Source of the DNA: an uncultured Spirochaetales bacterium
Lineage (GTDB): Bacteria; Spirochaetota; Spirochaetia; CAYLLE01
NCBI GenBank assembly: GCA_964618265.1
Contig: CAZUAE010000014.1
Span: forward strand, 4 to 64,003
Direction of reading: 5' to 3'
DNA length: 64,000 bases
The position numbers and the translations under genes are program-made. The notes under the pieces were generated by a model. The model was not told the DNA's origin. It did not search any database and saw only the letters and a list, made by a program, of their open reading frames with translations. Of this stretch, positions 2,374-12,785 are shown piece by piece. The first letter of the stretch is position 1. Each line of letters opens with the position of its first letter.

Positions 2374-4020
2374 ATGGAAGAAACTAAACTTGTTCAGTTG
2401 GAAGAACAGCTTTGGTCCGCTAATGATGCATATAAAATATCTATTCTTAATAACCTCGCCTCGTACTGCCGTACAAAATATCCGGGAAAAGCGCTGTCGT
2501 ATGCATTAAAAGCACAGGAACTGTCGGAAAAATTTACCGATCTAAAAAACAACTCAGATTCGCTTAACATCATTGCATATATCTATGCAACATCTATCAA
2601 TGATATAGGTAAAGCCAGAGAATACGCGGATAGAGCTCTAGAAACATCCCGGAAAATTAAATACCGCAAAGGAAGAGCAGCATCCTATCTCACCAAGACT
2701 ATTGTTTACACAAAGGTTGGAAACCATTTGAAAGCTCTTAAGGGCTTATCAAAATCTTTAAATATCTATTCTGATTTGGATGACCGAATTGGTATCGCCC
2801 GGGTTTATAACCGTCTCGGAATCTCTTATCAAGCTTTAGGAAACATAGAAAAATCCTTCGATTATTTTACCAAAGCAAAGGAATTTTTCGAAGAAATTGG
2901 CGATACTCACAGTATAGCAGAAGAACTTAACAATTTGGGTTTACTATTTACTCAGCAAGGAGAAATAGAAAAAGCCTTCTGTCTATTTAATCAAGCAAAA
3001 ACATTGTTCGAAGATTCCGGTAGTAGTATCGCAACAGTGCTATTAAACATATCAAAAATCCATAAACTAAGGGAAGAATATACTGAAGCTAAAAAAATCA
3101 TCCATCAGGTTTTAGCTTTAGCAACGGAAAACAATGATCAATATATAATCGCTTCCGCAAACTTACGTATTGGAATTCTTAATAAAAAAATTGGTGTAAA
3201 CGAATCATCTCTTCCGTATTATCAAAAGGCACTTAAAATCGCTTCGGAACTGAAAAACCGCGATCTGGAAAAGGAAATCTGCCTGACTATTTCTCAATTC
3301 TTTGAAGAAAAAAATGATTTTAAAAAAGCTTTAGAATATCACAAAAGAAATTACAATTTAGAAAAAAAAGAAAAGGATTCGATTATTCTTTCTACTATGA
3401 GCTTTTCCGGTAATGTTACTTCAAAGGAAAGTGAAATATACCGGGTTCGTAATAGAGAACTTCTAAAAATAAATGCTAAGCTTAAAAGGTCGAATACGAA
3501 AATCCGATACCGTGCAGAAAAATGCCGTAAAATGTCCAGAATCGACTTCTTAACAAATCTATTCAACCGGCAGCATCTGGATACGGTATTGGAACGGGAA
3601 TGGAATAGGGCTGTGAGATATGGGCATCCCCTAAGCGTAGCCATGGTGGATGTAGATTTATTCAAACGGGTAAATGATAATTACAACCACCACGTGGGAG
3701 ATATAGTTCTGAAATCAATATCAAGCATTCTCCAGGAAAATATCCGTACCTGCGATATTATCGGGCGTTACGGCGGAGAAGAATTCCTGGCGATTTTCCC
3801 GGATACTTCAATAGAAGGGGCGAAAGTGGCATGTGAAAAAATGAGGGGGGCGGTGGAAAGTTTCTCGTGGGACAGCATTTGTCCTCAGCTGAAAATAACC
3901 ATAAGCATCGGCATTTGCTCCCGCGGTCCCGCCATGGAGAAAGCTCAAGATATTGTACTAAAGGCAGATCAAAATATGTATCAAGCAAAAAATTCGGGGA
4001 GAAACAAGGTAATTCCATAA
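2374..4020 (+). CDS. TPR-repeat diguanylate cyclase (GGDEF domain)
   Basis: N-terminal ~330 aa of TPR-like repeats. C-terminal GGDEF domain has an intact active site (RYGGEEFLAIF) and an RxxD I-site (RTCD) 5 residues upstream. SD gaagaggg precedes the ATG. Confidence 0.8.
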   Translation: MEETKLVQLEEQLWSANDAYKISILNNLASYCRTKYPGKALSYALKAQELSEKFTDLKNNSDSLNIIAYIYATSINDIGKAREYADRALETSRKIKYRKGRAASYLTKTIVYTKVGNHLKALKGLSKSLNIYSDLDDRIGIARVYNRLGISYQALGNIEKSFDYFTKAKEFFEEIGDTHSIAEELNNLGLLFTQQGEIEKAFCLFNQAKTLFEDSGSSIATVLLNISKIHKLREEYTEAKKIIHQVLALATENNDQYIIASANLRIGILNKKIGVNESSLPYYQKALKIASELKNRDLEKEICLTISQFFEEKNDFKKALEYHKRNYNLEKKEKDSIILSTMSFSGNVTSKESEIYRVRNRELLKINAKLKRSNTKIRYRAEKCRKMSRIDFLTNLFNRQHLDTVLEREWNRAVRYGHPLSVAMVDVDLFKRVNDNYNHHVGDIVLKSISSILQENIRTCDIIGRYGGEEFLAIFPDTSIEGAKVACEKMRGAVESFSWDSICPQLKITISIGICSRGPAMEKAQDIVLKADQNMYQAKNSGRNKVIP

Positions 4021-4063
4021 CCTTGCACTCCCCTCATGTTATCGCTTAGCTGTGTATCCGGGT

Positions 4064-7000
4064 TTACCTAATCAGGATAAATTCCACCCTTCTGTTTTTC
4101 CATCGATTTTCAAGATCACTAAAAGGGACGATGGGTTGAGCGCCGCCGAGACCTTCGGTGGATATCCGCTTAGGATCCATACCTAGATCTACCAATGCGC
4201 TCTTAACAGCTTCCGCGCGGGACTTAGAAAGGGGAATAAGTTCTTCCTCCTGTTCTATTTCCCCTTTCTTTGGGTCATCGTAGTGGACCATGACGGCATG
4301 GCCTTCGATTCTAATACGATAATTGGAATATTTCTCGAATATTTCAGCGAGTCTGCGCAGCGTTCTATAGTTCCGGTCAGCTTTTTCCTCATCAACATTT
4401 TTAAAGTTTGCAGTGTTTGGTGCAAAAGTGATGCTGGAGATGCGGATTTTCAGTTTATCTCCCTCCCGAATAACCAGTACATCAATTGGTATAGTGTCCC
4501 GGACGGTGGAGGTGTTTCCGTATCTATCCGTCATAGTGAGTGTGGTCCGGTAGTCTTCAGCTGCCTGGACAAGTTCCCCTTCATCCGAAAGACCATCCCA
4601 GATTATAGATTCAGCAGGCTCTCCTGTTCCGGAAAATGTCTTAAAAGGTTTACCGGTGGGATCGTAGATAATCAGTTCCCAGGTATCTATAGGGCTTTCA
4701 TCCCGGGCATTCAGCCGGATGGTGAGTTCATCATTAAGGCCGTCATCATCCGGCGAAAACAGCTTCGGGGTTAGGGTTATGTTCGATGCCGGCGGTGATA
4801 CATCCAGTATGAACTGAGATGATTTTGTTTCAGGTCTGTTGCCTTTATGGTACTCCACAACAAACTCAGCCCTGTAATTCCCCTCGGCAGCACGGGCAGC
4901 ATCGCTCTTGCCGTTCCACGTTACGGAATCCGGAGGCACTGACGTACCGGAAAATGTTTTTTCCGTACCGCCGTCAGCATGTTCCATCTTCAGGCGCCAG
5001 CGTTTTATGCCTTCCTTAAGACCGGTATAGAGCCGGAAGGTAATCGTATCATCAGTTCCGTCACCGTTTGGTGAAAAGCCCCGGTCGGAGACGGTTGTAA
5101 AAGCTGTAGTCCTGCGGGTATCGATGGTGATATTTTCCAGCTTACGTTCAACTTTATTACCTGCCTTGTCTTGTGAACTTACTGTATATATGTATGTTCC
5201 ATCCGGGATGCTGTTCCCATTCATATCCTTGCCGTCCCAGGTAAAATCCTTCGCGTTTCCCTGCCAAAAATAAGTTTTAATCACCTTTCCGGAGGTGTCG
5301 CTTATTTCGCCTTCCCAGAGATCCTCCGTGGAAGATGACTGAGATATCGTAATTTCATCCAGATTACCGTCCCCTTCTGGCGAAAAGAGAAGTGTCTCCG
5401 CGGATAATTCAATTTCCGGATACTGAGTGTCTAACACTACAGGATTGGTTTTTGTGGTGGGTTTATTTCCATTCATATACGTAACATGTAATTCACCCAA
5501 ATAGGTTCCATCCACCGCAGGATTTCCGGCTTCATTCTTGCCGTTCCACTCTATACGTTGAGGTATTGATCTGCCGGTAAAAGTCTTAATTTCTTCACCT
5601 GAGGTGTCCTTTATCTTTAACGTATAGGATTCAAAACCTTGTGATACGGATATGTCAGGGAGAAATTCCACAGCATCCTTTATTCCGTCAGCGTTAGGTG
5701 AAAAATAACTTATGTCTGTGGAAACCAGAATAGGGGTCTGGGTGGTATCGACAGAAAAAATTACTGCTGAAGATGAACCGGCATTACCAGCTTTATCTAT
5801 AGCCTTTAGTGTATAAGAGTATTGTCCGTCCGGTACATTCTTTCCCTGGAAATTTCTTCCGTCCCAGGAAAATTCTTCATCCACTGTACCCCGCCAGGTG
5901 TATACTCTTACGGGATCACTGTCTTCGTTTCGGACTGTTCCCTCCCATAGCTGTTCATTGGAGGCAGTCTGTGTAAATATCATAATATCTTTGCTTCCGT
6001 CTCCGTTAGGAGAAAAAACGGTATACTTTCCCGAAACTTTAGCTTCCGGCGGCGTAATATCTATGACGAACAAAGACGATTTTGCTCTTTCGATATTTCC
6101 CTTTTGGTATTCCACTTCAAGTTCGGCTTTATAGCTCCCTTCCCCTGCCTTACCTATTGTCTTTTCTCCATTCCATGTTATCGAAGCGGGGAGAGAACCT
6201 GTACCGTCATAAGTTTTCATAACTGCTCCGGCGGTATCTGTAATCTTCAGGTTCCATTCCTTAATGCCGGAATTCTGTTGCAGGGAGGGTTGGAAATCTA
6301 TAGTGTCCTTATTCCCGTCTCCATTAGGAGAAAAGAATCCTCTGGAAACAGTAATGGTTACCGGAGTTGGTTTTGTATCTACCTGTATATTTTGAAGAAG
6401 TTTAACAGTAAGGTTTCCTGCCTTATCTTCACTTTGAACACGGTAGGAATAGACTCCGTCCTTTACCGTATTACCTACAGCATCAGTACCGTCCCATGTA
6501 AGATTATCAACTTCTCCGGACCAAAACCAGGAATCCACCTCCTGGCCGTTGGCATCCAGTATTTGACCTTCCCAAAGATCCTCCGCACTGGAATCCTGAG
6601 TAATAGTTATCAGGTCCTTGTTCCCGTCTCCGTCCGGAGAAAAAAGTGAAGTGTCTGAATCTACAGCAATTTTTGGGAACACAGTATCCACTACAAAAGG
6701 GGAGGTAATAACGGAGGGATTGTTTCCGTTACGGTATTCCACGGTAAACCGTGCGGAATATTCTCCGTCACGGACAGTAGTGCCTGAATCGGTTTTTCCA
6801 TTCCATATCACCGCATTGGGAGGAGTTCCCCCGCCTGAAAACGTTTTTACCGGGTTTTCCAGTGAATCTAAAACAACTATTTCATAAGATTCTATTGTAT
6901 CGGAAACTCCGAGCTCCGGAGAAAAAGTTTGTGTATCCTTTTTTCCATCTCCGTTTGGAGAAAAGTGTGTGAGTTCAAATGCAAGCTGAACAGGAGTTTC

Positions 7001-9304
7001 TCTGGTATCTATCTCAAAGGCAACAATATTGGATTGAACACTGTTTCCCGCAAGGTCTGTGGAAGAAAGCTGATAAAAATACCTGCCGTCCTCTAATAAA
7101 TTTCCATCTTCATCTCTTCCGTCCCAAGAATACTTTGTTTCCGCGTTACCCTTCCAAGTTATGGAATACATTTCATCACCATCTTCATTGGTTACAGAAC
7201 CTGTCCAAACCTCTTCGCGGCTTGTTTCCTGAAAAATAACTAGGAAATCTTTCCGTCCGTCACCGTTTGGTGAAAAAACATCCCACTGAGCTTTAGTTTG
7301 AACTGATGGAGGGGTCAAATCAAGATTGAAGGAAGGCGAAACATCCGAAGGATTGTTTCCGTTGATATACAAAAGGTCCAGTTGAGCGGTGTAGATACCT
7401 TCCGGAAGCCGTGTCCCGTCGTTATCCTTTCCGTCAAATGTTATTGTTTCCGGGAGTTCCTCTGCACCGGTAAATGAGCGGACAGTATTATCAGAATTGT
7501 CTTTTACCATTACTTCCCATTTTTCGATATTCGTTGTCGAGGGAGCGTCAATAGCAAAAAATATCGTGTCCTTTACTCCGTTCCCGTCGGGGGAAAAATT
7601 TGCATCAGAAACAGATAGATCAATAGGAGTTTTTTCAGTATTGATAATGATATTATCTGTCCTATGTGTTATGGTATTCCCCGCCTTATCGGTGGATGAT
7701 ATAACATACCAGTATACACCATCCGGTGCTAAAATCCCTTCGCTGTTTTTTCCATCCCACTGGAAAAATTCCGGTTCTCCAGCCCAGGTAAATTCCGCAA
7801 CCTTTTCTTCCACCGCATTATATATTTCCGCTTCCCATTTATCTTCTTTTGATCCGAATTGATCTATTACAAGAGTATCTTTGTTTCCGTCGTCATTGGG
7901 AGAGAAAATCGGATAGGGAAGTTCAACGGTTACCATAGGGTCCACCGTATCTATGACAACTTTTCGGGAATCTGTTTTACTGATATTTCCATTGTCGTCC
8001 CAGGCTTCGACAAAGTAGGTATATGTTCCATCCGAGACCAGAGAGCCGGCATCGTCATTTCCGTCCCATCTAAGGGATTCCGGTACTGTGATTCCTTCTT
8101 TAACGTAGAGCAGCCGGTCGATAACATTCCGGAAACCTTCATTTTCGGGACGTTCATCTTTATTTTTTATTGTGCGGACAACTTTTCCGTCAGAATCCTG
8201 AAAGATTAATCGGTATCCGCGGACGTATCTTTCGTCTTCAATAGCCAAAGGAACAAGTAAATTATCTTTTACTCCGTCGAAATTAGGAGAGATGTAGGCT
8301 ATTCCGTCAGGTCCGATGGAAATATCAGGAGGATTTCTATCAATTACTCCTAAGGGAAGGTTCGCCCCAAGCCCCATAGCCCAGATACCGTTAATCAGCG
8401 GCGCTGCTCCGGCCGTGGTTGTAATTTCACTGCGGCGCCAAACGTCTGCTTCCCCATCATCATCCGACTTCGAGCCCGTTCCGAAACTAACTGCCAAACC
8501 GAAGGACAGCGGAAACCGCTCGGTGCCGGTTAATGTATCCTGTAAATCGAAATTATACGCGCCTTTAAGACTGATCATATCAAAAAGAATTGCTGAAAGG
8601 CCCGCGCTTAAATGAACGTCCTGAAATGTCGGGAAAGCCGCATAAGAACTAAAGCCTAAGGTGAAAGGATCGGTTTCGATAAGTTTAAAAGATGTATCCA
8701 GAACAGGTGTGAATATCGAAGGGATTTTCCCCCCAGGGGAATTATATCCCTTTCCCATTCCTCTCATGGCGAATCCCCAACGAAAGTCCTTGAGAAAGCC
8801 CAAATCTCCGGGAAGGTGGACAAAGCCCAAATTCAGACCCAATCCCCAATCGGCTCCAAAAACAAAATCGAGTCCCGCGCCTACATAGAAATCCGGATAT
8901 AGATCTTTACCAAAGCTCGTATTAATCATTCCAAAAGTACCGTAAGGAAGGAATGCAAAAGGTGAAGTTAAAAAACGGCCGCTGCCGCTGAAAACACCTG
9001 CCCGTGTAGGAACCGTTACACCGGCGTTTATAACATGCCCCATTCCTGTATCCTCACCAAAACCGAGCATGTTTATATAACTCAGATCCAGAGTCAAACG
9101 CTGTTTTCCGCCGGAAGCCGCCGGATTTAAAACGTCCGACTGCGGTGATACCATTCCGGAAGCCGTAACGCCCCCCGCCAAAAAAGACGGAGAGTAGAGG
9201 TATTCAGTATCAACGAATGCGTCAGTCTGCGAAAATACCGGAATTCCTGTTATAAAAAATACTGTAATCAATATATATAAAAGTCGGCTTTTCTTGATAT
9301 CCAT
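4064..9304 (-). CDS. Giant secreted OmpA-family protein: signal peptide, Gly/Phe-rich N-terminal domain, ~12 FlgD-Ig-like repeats, C-terminal OmpA peptidoglycan-binding domain
   Basis: 1746 aa. N-terminal signal peptide (MDIKKSRLLYILITVFFITGIPVFSQ). Repeated FSPNGDGxKD / FSPDGDGNKD motifs (~12 copies) typical of FlgD-Ig-like domains. C-terminus (RIRIEGHAVMV...RAEAVKSALVDLGMDP...NRRVEFILIR) matches the OmpA C-terminal domain. Confidence 0.75.
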   Translation of the reverse strand: MDIKKSRLLYILITVFFITGIPVFSQTDAFVDTEYLYSPSFLAGGVTASGMVSPQSDVLNPAASGGKQRLTLDLSYINMLGFGEDTGMGHVINAGVTVPTRAGVFSGSGRFLTSPFAFLPYGTFGMINTSFGKDLYPDFYVGAGLDFVFGADWGLGLNLGFVHLPGDLGFLKDFRWGFAMRGMGKGYNSPGGKIPSIFTPVLDTSFKLIETDPFTLGFSSYAAFPTFQDVHLSAGLSAILFDMISLKGAYNFDLQDTLTGTERFPLSFGLAVSFGTGSKSDDDGEADVWRRSEITTTAGAAPLINGIWAMGLGANLPLGVIDRNPPDISIGPDGIAYISPNFDGVKDNLLVPLAIEDERYVRGYRLIFQDSDGKVVRTIKNKDERPENEGFRNVIDRLLYVKEGITVPESLRWDGNDDAGSLVSDGTYTYFVEAWDDNGNISKTDSRKVVIDTVDPMVTVELPYPIFSPNDDGNKDTLVIDQFGSKEDKWEAEIYNAVEEKVAEFTWAGEPEFFQWDGKNSEGILAPDGVYWYVISSTDKAGNTITHRTDNIIINTEKTPIDLSVSDANFSPDGNGVKDTIFFAIDAPSTTNIEKWEVMVKDNSDNTVRSFTGAEELPETITFDGKDNDGTRLPEGIYTAQLDLLYINGNNPSDVSPSFNLDLTPPSVQTKAQWDVFSPNGDGRKDFLVIFQETSREEVWTGSVTNEDGDEMYSITWKGNAETKYSWDGRDEDGNLLEDGRYFYQLSSTDLAGNSVQSNIVAFEIDTRETPVQLAFELTHFSPNGDGKKDTQTFSPELGVSDTIESYEIVVLDSLENPVKTFSGGGTPPNAVIWNGKTDSGTTVRDGEYSARFTVEYRNGNNPSVITSPFVVDTVFPKIAVDSDTSLFSPDGDGNKDLITITQDSSAEDLWEGQILDANGQEVDSWFWSGEVDNLTWDGTDAVGNTVKDGVYSYRVQSEDKAGNLTVKLLQNIQVDTKPTPVTITVSRGFFSPNGDGNKDTIDFQPSLQQNSGIKEWNLKITDTAGAVMKTYDGTGSLPASITWNGEKTIGKAGEGSYKAELEVEYQKGNIERAKSSLFVIDITPPEAKVSGKYTVFSPNGDGSKDIMIFTQTASNEQLWEGTVRNEDSDPVRVYTWRGTVDEEFSWDGRNFQGKNVPDGQYSYTLKAIDKAGNAGSSSAVIFSVDTTQTPILVSTDISYFSPNADGIKDAVEFLPDISVSQGFESYTLKIKDTSGEEIKTFTGRSIPQRIEWNGKNEAGNPAVDGTYLGELHVTYMNGNKPTTKTNPVVLDTQYPEIELSAETLLFSPEGDGNLDEITISQSSSTEDLWEGEISDTSGKVIKTYFWQGNAKDFTWDGKDMNGNSIPDGTYIYTVSSQDKAGNKVERKLENITIDTRRTTAFTTVSDRGFSPNGDGTDDTITFRLYTGLKEGIKRWRLKMEHADGGTEKTFSGTSVPPDSVTWNGKSDAARAAEGNYRAEFVVEYHKGNRPETKSSQFILDVSPPASNITLTPKLFSPDDDGLNDELTIRLNARDESPIDTWELIIYDPTGKPFKTFSGTGEPAESIIWDGLSDEGELVQAAEDYRTTLTMTDRYGNTSTVRDTIPIDVLVIREGDKLKIRISSITFAPNTANFKNVDEEKADRNYRTLRRLAEIFEKYSNYRIRIEGHAVMVHYDDPKKGEIEQEEELIPLSKSRAEAVKSALVDLGMDPKRISTEGLGGAQPIVPFSDLENRWKNRRVEFILIR
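4560..8320 (-). repeat. Intragenic tandem array of ~100-aa (~300-nt) FlgD-Ig-like repeats in two alternating subtypes
   Basis: Protein repeats alternate between a WEG / WDG.D..GN..DG.Y.Y / DKAGN subtype and a W.L.I.D..G / I.WNGK / VEY..GN subtype. Approximate DNA span is back-calculated from amino-acid positions 330-1580. Confidence 0.55.
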
Positions 9305-9449
9305 TTTTCATTCTTCCTTTTCTGTGGTCTTTAAGATGATATTATAACACGTATTGCAAAAATCTCTAACATTCTTCGTGATGGCAAGTTATGGTTCGCA
9401 TCCAGATTAATTCATGGAGGAAAAAAATAGATGTAAAGTGTAGGACGTA

Positions 9450-10661
9450 TCAGTTATCAAGTTCCACCATAAGATCAATATAATCCAACATTAACCGGGT
9501 TGTTAAAAATTTCTTTCTAACAGTTTCTTTAGCTTTTTCTCCCATCTCTTGGTGTAGAGAGGGGTTTTTAAGAAGTTCAATAATTCTATCGGCACACCCG
9601 TCAATGTCTTTCGGTTCTATAAGATAACCATTTTCTCCTGATGTTATCTGCTCGCCTATTCCTCCCGCTGTGGAAGCAACAACAGGCTTTCCTTTCCACA
9701 TTGCTTCTGTCACGGTAAGACAAAACCCTTCTCTTAATGATTTCTGGATAATAACTGAAGAAAACCTTTGAATTGCATTAACCAAAAGGGCGTTGTTTCC
9801 TACAACAAAAATTACATCTCCATTATCACTGAGTTCTTTTGCCTTTTCATAAACCCGTTCGAATACCTGCATTCCTTCAGGATCATCAGAAGCAAGATTA
9901 TAACAGAAAAGAAGCCGGCAATCTATTTTTTTCCTCACCTTTTCATAAACTTCCAATACCCCTTCCGGATCTTTCCAGGGGTCCATTCGAGATACCTGTG
10001 TAATAATAGGTTTATCAGTCGGGATATCTTCTTCTTTTATGTAATGGGCTATTTCCTTTTGACTTAATTCTTTATTCTTCATAGACAATGGATCAATAGC
10101 GGGATGAATTATCCGCTGTTCCACGGGAAGGTCAGCCTTAAGATACTTTTTACTGGATACTACAATGATATCGTATCTTAACATATATCGTTTTAGAAAG
10201 TTCCACACATCTGGATTAGAATCAGTAATATCGATATGACAGCGCCATATCCAGGGCTGAGTCTTCTTGAAATAACGGATCAGAGGAAGCGGTTGGGGAT
10301 CATGGATAATAATAAAATCATGATCAAAATGCGAATATATAGAAAAATCATGATTGACATCCAAATAGAACCGCTTCTCAAAATCTGTGAGACCTTCAGG
10401 ATTCCCCTGCATGGCATTGTGAATCTTCTTAGTTATTTCGTAAAAGTTTTGGTTGCCATGGACAGTCCGCCAACCGGTATCTAAGCCCGCATCGTTCATT
10501 AAGGGAATTGTAGAAGAGAGGATCTCCGCGACGCCGCCTCCAAGAAAGGTGGAGTTTATCTGAACATTGTGCTTCCCATATAGCTTCCGTACCTTTTTGT
10601 GTATATTCGCTACCATTTCATCGCCGGCAGCATCGATGTACATTTCGAGACTTTTGGCCAT
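9450..10661 (-). CDS. treT: Trehalose glycosyltransferring synthase (GT4 family, TreT-like)
   Basis: Strong recalled similarity to archaeal/bacterial TreT: VNSTFLGGGVAEIL, WRCHIDIT, IITQVSRMDPWKD, REGFCLTVTEAMWKGKPVV. Confidence 0.65.
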   Translation of the reverse strand: MAKSLEMYIDAAGDEMVANIHKKVRKLYGKHNVQINSTFLGGGVAEILSSTIPLMNDAGLDTGWRTVHGNQNFYEITKKIHNAMQGNPEGLTDFEKRFYLDVNHDFSIYSHFDHDFIIIHDPQPLPLIRYFKKTQPWIWRCHIDITDSNPDVWNFLKRYMLRYDIIVVSSKKYLKADLPVEQRIIHPAIDPLSMKNKELSQKEIAHYIKEEDIPTDKPIITQVSRMDPWKDPEGVLEVYEKVRKKIDCRLLFCYNLASDDPEGMQVFERVYEKAKELSDNGDVIFVVGNNALLVNAIQRFSSVIIQKSLREGFCLTVTEAMWKGKPVVASTAGGIGEQITSGENGYLIEPKDIDGCADRIIELLKNPSLHQEMGEKAKETVRKKFLTTRLMLDYIDLMVELDN

Positions 10662-11360: not shown

Positions 11361-12785
11361 TCAAGACACCCCGTATTTCTCTGCGCAATTCTTATCTTCC
11401 CCAAATTTCTTTTGAGCCTCCTTAAGCGTTTGTTTTAAGGCTTTTACTCTTTCAGAATAACCGGGATCATCGTATGCATTCCGCATTTCTAAAGGATCCT
11501 TTTGCAGATCAAAATATTCAAAATAGGATTCGGGAGAAAAATCATAGAAGTAAACTAACTTTTCATCCTTAGTCCGGACACCAAGTTGGGGTTCAAGGCC
11601 GTACCCAAAGGCACTTCCATAGTAATGATAGTAGACTGCATCCCTCCAATCGGCAGGTGTTTTACCCGTTAATAATTTCCGCAGAGATCTTCCATGCATA
11701 TCTTCCGGCAACGGAATCCCGGCGTAGTCGAGAAAAGTCGCGGAAAAATCCAAAGTGGTAACCAAATCTGAATTAACTGTTCCCGCGGAAATTTCTTGAG
11801 GATACCGTACCAAAAGGGGCACGCGCTGTGATTCCTCGTACATCCATACCTTATTATGAAGTCCGTGATCGCCAAGGAAAAATCCGTTATCGGAGGTATA
11901 TACTACTATCGTGTTGTCCTTTAGATCAGTACTATCTACAAAATCGATAAGCCTGCCCACATTTTCATCTAAGGCGGCAACAAGTCTTAAATACCGTTTA
12001 TACAACCGCTGATAGACCCACTTCCTTAAAGGTACCCCTGATAAACGCTCAGGACCGTCTATTTCATCAAATTTCCAACTTTTACACCGTTTTTTTGTTA
12101 CCATATCAAGACGGGAGTGTTCAGTCGTAGAGTTCTGCAGCGCTTTTCTAGTGGCGTAATTATCATCCAGCGTTTCCGGTTCCGGAAGATCCTCTTCGTA
12201 AAATGAGGCGAATTTATCAGGATAGTCATATGGCGCGTGCGGTGCTTTGTGGTGCACTAACAAACAGAAAGGTTTATCAGATTTTCTCTCTTCCATCCAT
12301 CGGACGGCATCATCGGTAATCACATCGGTAAGGTATCCTCTCCGAACTTCTCCTCCGTTAGGGCCGTCCTGCCAGGGCTTTCCCTTTTCCTTCATAACAG
12401 GATCCCAGTATCTCCCCTGCCCCGGCAGCACATTGTAGTAATCAAAACCGGTAGGTTCGGAAACCAGATGCCATTTTCCAATAATTGCCGTTTCGTATCC
12501 TGCCCGCTTAAGGATCTTTGGAAATGTTTCTTGGGAACCGTCAAAGGTATCTCCATTTCGAAAGAAGCCGTTGGCACTGGAGTGTTTTCCCGCGAGTATA
12601 CTTGCCCTGCTGGGTGCGCACACTGAGTTAACATCAAAACAGTTAGAGAAACGTATTCCTTCTTGAGCTAAGCGGTCGATATTGGGAGTACTGTTTATCT
12701 TACTTCCGTAACTGCTGATTGCATGTGCTCCGTGATCATCCGACATAATATAAATAATATTGGGCTGATTGCTTTTCCCATCCAT
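11361..12785 (-). CDS. Cys-type sulfatase (formylglycine-dependent; arylsulfatase / N-acetylglucosamine-6-sulfatase-like), no signal peptide
   Basis: N-terminal IYIMSDDHG metal-binding motif and the C-A-P-S-R sulfatase signature (CAPSRAS). N-terminus has no signal peptide. Confidence 0.8.
   Translation of the reverse strand: MDGKSNQPNIIYIMSDDHGAHAISSYGSKINSTPNIDRLAQEGIRFSNCFDVNSVCAPSRASILAGKHSSANGFFRNGDTFDGSQETFPKILKRAGYETAIIGKWHLVSEPTGFDYYNVLPGQGRYWDPVMKEKGKPWQDGPNGGEVRRGYLTDVITDDAVRWMEERKSDKPFCLLVHHKAPHAPYDYPDKFASFYEEDLPEPETLDDNYATRKALQNSTTEHSRLDMVTKKRCKSWKFDEIDGPERLSGVPLRKWVYQRLYKRYLRLVAALDENVGRLIDFVDSTDLKDNTIVVYTSDNGFFLGDHGLHNKVWMYEESQRVPLLVRYPQEISAGTVNSDLVTTLDFSATFLDYAGIPLPEDMHGRSLRKLLTGKTPADWRDAVYYHYYGSAFGYGLEPQLGVRTKDEKLVYFYDFSPESYFEYFDLQKDPLEMRNAYDDPGYSERVKALKQTLKEAQKKFGEDKNCAEKYGVS

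Follow-up and report, generated by a model that had tools for sequence, protein, structure and literature searches.

What could hold the outer membrane (OM) of a spirochaete to its peptidoglycan (PG) when the flagella lie and rotate between the two (PMC5104382; PMC7225975)? The question is raised by a single long gene at positions 4064..9304 (− strand) of the window, the whole 64,000-nucleotide stretch analysed here, which derives from an uncultured Spirochaetales bacterium (assembly GCA_964618265.1, contig CAZUAE010000014.1). The gene is an open reading frame (ORF) with an ATG start that encodes 1746 amino acids (aa), which a first-pass annotation of the DNA had parsed as a signal peptide, a Gly/Phe-rich domain, immunoglobulin (Ig)-like repeats and an OmpA domain. 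Translation and Pfam searches bear this architecture out, with 12 Ig-like repeats of ~105 aa each placed between the Gly/Phe-rich N-terminal domain and the C-terminal OmpA domain; Pfam reports FlgD_ig in 10 stretches (E 1.8e-69), CHU_C in nine stretches, Big_13, and one OmpA domain. We consider it probable that the gene encodes a single-chain OM-to-PG tether of the OmpA class, assembled from unusual parts. The combination of an OmpA domain and a predicted β-barrel in one chain falls within the operational definition of an OmpA tether given by Witwinowski et al. (10.1101/2021.05.31.446380), and proteins with a barrel and an OmpA domain are the only OM tether type reported there in Spirochaetes.

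The strongest functional evidence is the manner in which the arm composed of Ig-like repeats and OmpA domain is anchored, for which three forms were found. In the first, exemplified by the window gene, the arm is fused to a FadL-like barrel. The second is a split form found in Treponema, in which a 350-aa stand-alone barrel gene ends exactly where the barrel of the fusion ends, and an arm gene of ~1050 aa begins 1–10 nt past it. The split arm carries its own Sec signal peptide, followed by an R1-type repeat, (AB)3, Z and OmpA (eight repeats; the repeat types are described below). Two Treponema metagenome-assembled genomes (MAGs) provide examples, with barrel and arm at 6001-7071 and 7073-10255 in locus L083, and at 1890-2954 and 2965-6099 in locus L084. 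Of the 150 best representatives, 42 are stand-alone barrels, and a search dedicated to them gave 187; where names are given, the organism is Treponema and the protein is a 'hypothetical protein'. The third form is a lipoprotein of ~815 aa, in which a lipobox Cys is followed by an R1-type repeat, (AB)2, Z and OmpA. It is widespread, making up at least 58 of the best 120 matches to the arm, and includes the cultured Spirochaeta isovalerica (L087, 6001-8457; JACHGJ010000006) as well as a further locus (L088, 6001-8442). In S. isovalerica, a second, shorter FlgD_ig–OmpA gene (381 aa, 8470-9615) lies directly after the lipoprotein-form gene, and one 4.84-Mb genome has two lipoprotein-form paralogues (P0330 and P0354).

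In all three architectures the R1-type repeat is membrane-proximal. The split gene pair is related to the fused gene by fusion or fission, and the separate Sec signal of its arm indicates that the arm is exported to the periplasm. Since a membrane anchor always occupies one end and an OmpA-like domain the other, and since a Sec-only version exists, the arm is most simply explained as a periplasmic connector between OM and PG. The first-pass annotation had suggested a very long tether that was either periplasm-spanning or surface-exposed; the split arm with its Sec signal and the lipoprotein form favour the periplasmic option. A barrel with an even number of strands, a split form that has Sec alone and an OmpA domain at the C-terminus all speak against the surface.

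The fused anchor begins with a Sec signal peptide at aa 1–26 (MDIKKSRLLYILITVFFITGIPVFSQ; 9227..9304, −), which was read from the translation with its cleavage site placed by inspection and which has no lipobox Cys. It is followed by an N-terminal 'hatch' segment at aa 27–69 (9098..9226, −), delimited by structure prediction and motif conservation, and by a domain at aa 70–318 (8351..9097, −) containing 14.9% Gly and 10.0% Phe. Pfam searches of this N-domain and 22 homologues at E values up to 10 returned no family, and a profile search of Protein Data Bank (PDB) sequences with the N-domain returned no FadL, TodX or PorV. An AlphaFold2 (AF2) model from a 23-sequence alignment (pLDDT 83.4, pTM 0.78) has 14 β-strands over aa 70–318; the OM β-barrel that had been raised as a possibility for this region is thus what structure prediction gives, and not a soluble domain. 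In the same model, aa 3–19 of the signal peptide form a helix followed by a low-confidence segment, and the hatch is a confident pre-barrel segment of ~40 residues with three short helices (33–36, 39–42 and 55–59; pLDDT 74–91). Fold comparison places the model nearest to FadL (26.9), then PorV (25.8), a P. aeruginosa FadL homologue (25.1), TodX (23.6) and BamG (22.9), with OmpG (17.4) the best-scoring barrel outside the FadL-like group and the intimin barrel at 9.5. Foldseek concurs on a FadL-like fold.

The hatch segment contains an LNPA motif (N60-P61-A62). Gating of FadL requires NPA, which is conserved in its hatch, and the FadL orthologues of T. pallidum have the motif too (PMC8407342). 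Among the long forms of the family, 172 of 201 carry NPA, 21 NPS and 5 NAA (198 of 201 combined); NPA occurs in 38 of 42 stand-alone barrels, and one of the three variants in 41 of 42. Because the 14-stranded fold and the motif fit FadL and the sequence profile does not, we call the predicted N-domain FadL-like only, and not a member of the FadL family. The known proteins closest to it are FadL, TodX and TbuX of the FadL family, the FadL-like Bacteroidota proteins PorV and BamG, and the T. pallidum FadL orthologues TP0548, TP0859 and TP0865. Unlike FadL, the window barrel is small (~290 versus ~420 aa) with shorter loops, and its C-terminal extension is an Ig rod with an OmpA domain, whereas that of the T. 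pallidum orthologues is an α-helical domain resembling tetratricopeptide repeats (TPR). Conservation of the NPA hatch across the aligned homologues suggests that the barrel may also still work as a channel.

A separate observation concerns PorV, which is among the closest folds to the barrel region (8351-9226) and is the shuttle of the type IX secretion system (T9SS) that binds Ig-like C-terminal sorting domains. The window repeats (4796-8329) score above the cut-off of the T9SS type-B sorting model TIGR04131/CHU_C (109.3 bits versus 35), an identity that we rejected because the matches are nine repeats within the chain, which has an OmpA domain at its C-terminal end. Spirochaetota are not known to have a T9SS. 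The pairing of a PorV-like barrel with CHU_C-like domains may be a coincidence or a hint of shared origin.

Between barrel and OmpA domain, 12 repeats were located by an [FI]SPxxDG motif at aa 338..1516, with a spacing that alternates between 103–104 and 106–107 aa. Self-BLAST returned the identity match only, and motif-anchored segmentation with hidden Markov models (HMMs) was used in its place. The repeats fall into an A type (R2, R4, R6, R8 and R10; 36–51% mutual identity) and a B type (R3, R5, R7, R9 and R11; 32–46%), with 19–31% identity between A and B. The array is R1-(AB)5-R12. R1 is a specialised first repeat with a 22-aa insert (aa 326–454; 7943..8329, −), the five A–B di-repeats R2–R11 form a spacer rod (aa 455–1503; 4796..7942, −) defined by Pfam, segmentation and AF2, and R12 or 'Z' is an atypical, specialised last repeat that adjoins the OmpA domain (aa 1504–1608; 4481..4795, −). 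The strict alternation of two subtypes noted at first pass therefore holds, here and family-wide, whereas its division into about six equal di-repeats does not, R1 and R12 being distinct.

For the R4–R5 pair, AF2 with a 30-row alignment predicted two β-sandwiches (pLDDT 97.5, pTM 0.86). So high a pTM for two domains modelled together suggests that their relative geometry is defined. Among solved folds, Foldseek matched the di-repeat best to giant-adhesin extender modules made of tandem Ig-like domains, 6xi3 and SiiE 2yn5/2yn3 (template-modelling score ~0.6, in SiiE over two domains), with the Fn3 pairs of C5a peptidase also among the best PDB fold matches. Residues S-P-x-x-D-G-x-x-D and D-x-A-G-N are invariant or nearly so across the repeats. 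By analogy with the loops of adhesin extender domains, we suspect that these residues may form a rigidifying Ca2+ site.

The chain ends in an OmpA-like, putatively PG-binding domain at aa 1609–1746, which with the stop codon occupies 4064..4480 (−). Pfam OmpA (PF00691) matches at aa 1645–1738 with 43.5 bits against a gathering cut-off of 27.2, placing the domain within the family, and sequence matches in the PDB include PA0833-PD, YiaD, MotB, AbOmpA, Pal and T. pallidum Tp0624 (E 1e-9 to 1e-5). The motifs LSxxRA, with its key Arg, and NRRVEF are conserved over 153 family members. In its N-terminal OM barrel, the OmpA-like domain at its C-terminus and its retention of LSxxRA and NRRVE, the window protein resembles the OmpA and OprF tethers. 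It differs from OmpA in that its FadL-like barrel has 14 strands and not 8, in the ~1280 aa of Ig-like domains that stand where OmpA has a short linker, and in the absence of the Asp that binds diaminopimelic acid (DAP).

From these parts the following mechanism can be proposed. After Sec export, the 14-stranded FadL/PorV-like barrel with its NPA hatch would insert into the OM. Given the topology rule for an even number of strands, the chain would exit the barrel on the periplasmic side and continue as a rod of 12 Ig-like β-sandwich domains, R1-(AB)5-R12, and the terminal OmpA-like domain would, by family precedent, bind the PG sacculus non-covalently. The number of repeats would then set or limit the reach of the tether and the distance from OM to PG; in spirochaetes, flagella between PG and OM would require a wide or extensible gap. 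The barrel may additionally serve as a channel of the FadL type, which would make the protein dual in function as OmpM is. According to PMC10628300, PMC5771553 and PMC8824477, OmpM, one of the porins of diderm Terrabacteria with S-layer homology (SLH) domains, likewise unites an OM barrel and PG attachment in one polypeptide with an extended stalk between them, and the length of Lpp sets the OM–PG distance in E. coli. Whereas those systems use SLH domains and a coiled-coil stalk, or the Lpp coiled coil, the window family uses an OmpA-like domain and an Ig rod, and its length varies naturally by whole domains.

The first-pass annotation had proposed counting repeats in related strains, and they do differ in number. 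Relatives were collected by scanning GTDB species representatives with a back-translated pattern from a 9-sequence alignment, which gave at least 101 loci, 80 of them kept, and by an exhaustive profile search, which gave 907 cluster representatives (279 with E of 1e-30 or better). The 80 loci are environmental MAGs labelled Spirochaetota (Spirochaetales, Spirochaetia or Spirochaetaceae), with one labelled Deferribacteres, and the named organisms in the profile search are all Spirochaetota. HMM typing of every repeat in both data sets yields a single grammar, 1-(AB)n-Z followed by OmpA, which some 200 Spirochaetales relatives have in common with the window gene. By far the commonest class is n=3 (8 repeats, 110 sequences), followed by n=5, to which the window gene belongs (12 repeats, 21 sequences), and n=1 (4 repeats, 14 sequences); n=7 (16 repeats) occurs in 5 sequences, n=4 (10 repeats) in 3, and n=6 (14 repeats) and n=23 (48 repeats) in 1 each. 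Six further 12-repeat genes occur among the GTDB species representatives. R1 gives the highest score, and its type always stands first in the array. The 8-repeat proteins map to window repeats 1, 2, 3, 4/8, 9, 10, 11 and 12, and the 4-repeat proteins to 1, 2, 11 and 12; judged from this typing, the ends of the array are fixed and the middle expands.

The unit of expansion appears to be larger than the two-domain unit suggested initially. Protein identity between repeats of the window gene is highest at lag 4 (42.3%) and lower at lag 2 (36.9%) and lag 6 (36.5%). What similarity is left in the DNA returns at a spacing of 1257 nt, and the two results together indicate that the last expansion copied a four-domain ABAB block, roughly R4–R7 / R8–R11. 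Totals in the barrel-fused proteins are overwhelmingly multiples of four (4, 8, 12, 16 and 48), with few at 10 or 14. On a rough neighbour-joining tree of the barrel, the 4-repeat forms group as one clade, whereas those with 12 repeats are scattered over at least three positions; given this scatter, the +4 step probably happened more than once. The 'multiples of four' rule is suggestive, with few independent events behind it. It may reflect a structural period of four domains or merely the history of ABAB block duplication.

The longest member (P0175; L085, 5001-22205) has 5734 aa and 48 repeats, encoded by a 17.2-kb gene on a 3.26-Mb contig. Its repeats are up to 100% identical, with an identity peak again at lag 4; Tandem Repeats Finder (TRF), with a maximum period of 500, reported nothing in this gene. 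Near-identical repeats imply that recent recombinational expansion occurs in some lineages, though not in the window. In a second assembly, the same giant is called as two proteins of 4065 and 1669 aa (P0027 and P0176), probably through a frameshift.

Assuming 3.5–4.5 nm for each Ig-like domain, we estimate, independently of the models, that 4, 8 and 12 domains would span ~15, ~30 and ~40–55 nm. A further and more tentative proposal, which we regard as possible but rather doubtful, is that repeat number (mostly 4, 8, 12 or 16, in ABAB steps) encodes the width or slack of the gap that holds the flagella, with interchangeable anchors and a working FadL-type channel retained. If true, a changed repeat number would alter OM–PG spacing, OM mobility and motility.

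Several observations weigh against the tether proposal or its details. At the level of sequence, neither Pfam Toluene_X nor the PDB links the barrel to FadL. The OmpA-like domain has GHAV and then a 10-residue insert where the canonical GHTD would stand, and so lacks the Asp that binds DAP; Tp0624, a treponemal domain of comparable divergence, failed to bind DAP (PMC5104382). On our length estimate, the 48-repeat member would reach ~190 nm, beyond any periplasm, and the lipoprotein form has 6 repeats, so that the multiples-of-four pattern is not general. Of characterised proteins, the one closest to the arm is Leptospira Lsa66, reported to be a surface adhesin that binds laminin, fibronectin and plasminogen and can be detected on cells left intact (PMC3130794). 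With respect to PG binding, the canonical motif is quoted as TD-x7-N-xx-LS-xx-RA, spirochaete OmpA-like domains lose the DAP-binding Asp in the Tp0624 study, and L-ornithine replaces DAP in most spirochaete PG (PMC5104382). The Asn of this motif is not conserved in the family, and in some alignments a nearby YDD could act as a substitute. PG binding by the window domain is plausible. With respect to length, a ~190-nm rod means that a simple radial 'ruler' cannot hold for all members, and the family may be closer to a flexible or tilted 'leash' than to a rigid ruler.

The alternative that survives best, although we consider it unlikely as the main role, is that the protein is chiefly a FadL-type uptake channel for hydrophobic compounds, with the Ig–OmpA arm positioning the channel or passing cargo across the periplasm. 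Such a role has been proposed in T. pallidum for FadL orthologues whose C-termini extend into the periplasm. However, the arm also exists where a lipid is the sole anchor and there is no channel, and so has a function of its own, and PorV and BamG, which are not known as transporters, are equally close structurally. A channel is compatible with the tether proposal, but the lipid-anchored form makes it less likely to be all that the protein does.

It is improbable, in our judgement, that the protein is a surface adhesin whose Ig-like repeats lie outside the cell and bind host or environmental ligands, as in Lsa66, inverse autotransporters or giant RTX adhesins. The best NCBIfam match is the Leptospira 'fibronectin-binding adhesin Lsa66' model NF053608, at 494.6 bits against a 700-bit equivalog cut-off, and is limited to aa 1246–1744 of the protein (profile positions 94–579). 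Equivalence with Lsa66 was rejected on this score and on the additional barrel and 12 repeats of the window protein. The two do share a homologous arm, in Lsa66 one of FlgD_ig/CHU_C-type repeats that start with an FSPN motif right after the signal peptide and lead to a C-terminal OmpA-like domain. Unlike the window protein, Lsa66 (LIC10258, L. interrogans) has no barrel and, estimated from its length, ~4 repeats. The 120 best matches to the arm include no Leptospira protein. Its reading as a surface adhesin derives from binding of recombinant protein and immunofluorescence (PMC3130794). If the proposal that repeat number encodes the gap is true, Lsa66 would be a periplasmic tether arm and not a surface adhesin.

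The adhesin interpretation also draws on the fold of the di-repeat, which is like that of adhesin extender regions. The BIg repeats of SiiE and the MpIBP-type RII tetra-tandem 6xi3 are, like the window rod, ~100-aa β-sandwiches placed end to end; unlike it (sequence identity 16–18%), they project from the surface and end in ligand-binding domains, whereas the window rod has an OM anchor at one end and a putative PG-binding domain at the other. Similarly, Ig repeats that come after an N-terminal barrel recall an inverse autotransporter (intimin/invasin, type Ve), in which the passenger leaves via the pore of a 12-stranded barrel. This identity was rejected, given the low fold-comparison figure for the intimin barrel. 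An adhesin is disfavoured by the type of barrel, by the OmpA domain that ends the chain and by a split arm exported through Sec alone.

A flagellum-associated periplasmic structure, such as a guide, a sheath contact or a stator-like anchor, seems to us very improbable. Relatives are labelled 'flagellar hook assembly protein FlgD' or 'MotB' in some entries, the OmpA domain matches MotB C-domains, and spirochaete flagella are periplasmic. However, flagellar genes are absent both around the window gene and around the conserved 8-repeat locus, the transmembrane helix and plug of MotB are missing, and the N-terminus is instead an OM barrel. As a FlgD hook-cap protein the sequence was rejected, since its best match, NF005176, reaches 147.7 bits against a cut-off of 230, and only the Ig-like part of the model (profile positions 95–158) matches, repeatedly.

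That conserved locus is confined to one length class. The 8-repeat form belongs, in 41 of 54 loci, to a neighbourhood of a metallo-β-lactamase (MBL)-fold gene, the tether gene, yceG/mltG, dnaG and rpoD (e.g. L001, L002, L005, L034 and L051), so that it adjoins a gene for a PG enzyme, the glycosylase YceG/MltG. The 4-, 10- and 12-repeat loci are outside this neighbourhood in 13 of 13 cases, and two members of different length can occur in one MAG (12 repeats in L008 with 8 in L074, and 10 in L036 with 8 in L051). From repeat count and context, the window copy looks like a long paralogue type and not the 'core' 8-repeat copy.

The integrity of the repeat array in the assembly was examined through its DNA and its nearest relative. 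Repeat units of the window gene are at most 61.5% identical in DNA, with a longest exact match of 21 nt, and of no more than 14 nt in the ten most similar pairs. TRF reported no tandem repeat in the gene, its maximum period of 500 being shorter than the 630-nt di-repeat and the units being too diverged. The nearest locus, L003, from an independent MAG, encodes a 1743-aa orthologue with 75% identity over the full length and 79% over the N-domain; it is colinear, its repeats correspond one-to-one, and identity reaches 85% in R12 and 91% in the OmpA domain. Change of copy number by recombination, and collapse in assembly, are therefore unlikely for the window gene, and the initial idea that DNA repeats of ~300 nt drive copy-number variation does not apply to it: the units are too dissimilar and the orthologue has retained all 12. 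An assembly artefact (collapse, expansion or chimaera), which the first-pass annotation had itself raised and which is suggested by repetition at the protein level and by frameshifts in some long-read relatives, can be practically dismissed in view of the diverged units, the colinear orthologue and the additional 12-repeat genes.

Names in the databases give little guidance to the family, being generic ('OmpA family protein', 'FlgD immunoglobulin-like domain containing protein', 'gliding motility-associated C-terminal domain-containing protein' or 'hypothetical protein'), and a literature search found no paper describing the barrel–Ig–OmpA architecture. The family thus appears undescribed, and what appears new within OmpA-type tethers is the FadL-like barrel, the stepwise-variable Ig spacer and the modular anchoring. 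Our comparison suggests that the labels 'FlgD', 'gliding motility C-terminal domain' and 'adhesin Lsa66' are misleading for these proteins. The family bears on how spirochaetes hold a fluid, fragile OM to the wall under rotating periplasmic flagella. The candidate tethers that surveys name for Spirochaetes are 'OmpA-like' proteins only; the family offers a concrete, widespread and testable candidate and, with PorV and BamG, belongs to the small set of FadL-like barrels that have a structural partner.

The surroundings of the window gene are less informative. The tether gene is separated by a 145-bp gap from its same-strand upstream neighbour, a TreT-like glycosyltransferase gene (9450-10661, −). 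A TPR–GGDEF gene (2374-4020, +), which had been taken for the upstream neighbour, is in fact convergent with the 3′ end of the tether gene, the stop codons lying 43 bp apart. A ribosome-binding site GGAAG (9313..9317, −) can be read from the sequence 8 nt ahead of the ATG at 9304. A scan of the region for promoters and terminators gave site counts not above chance, with one plausible extended −10 site upstream, a promoter-like consensus match comprising TAGAGA, a 16-nt spacer and TGTTATAAT (9341..9368, −). Rfam had no family at gathering score over the whole window, which also contains no second copy of the barrel or the OmpA domain.

The L003 locus shares the flanking glycosyltransferase, GGDEF, 201-aa ORF and C1 peptidase genes, a synteny found at no other locus, and being confined to L003 it does not allow an operon partner to be inferred. 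In L003, the C1 peptidase gene is directly beside the 201-aa ORF, and the gap between glycosyltransferase and tether genes is ~1.3 kb; the sulfatase (11361-12785) and GH42-like (59-2296) genes near the window tether gene have no counterpart there. Finally, in L001 and L002, which are ENA long-read metagenome contigs, the family genes, yceG and rpoD are each split into several ORFs, apparently by frameshift errors, and these broken ORFs account for a first homology search that yielded only 'short' proteins of 300–530 aa.

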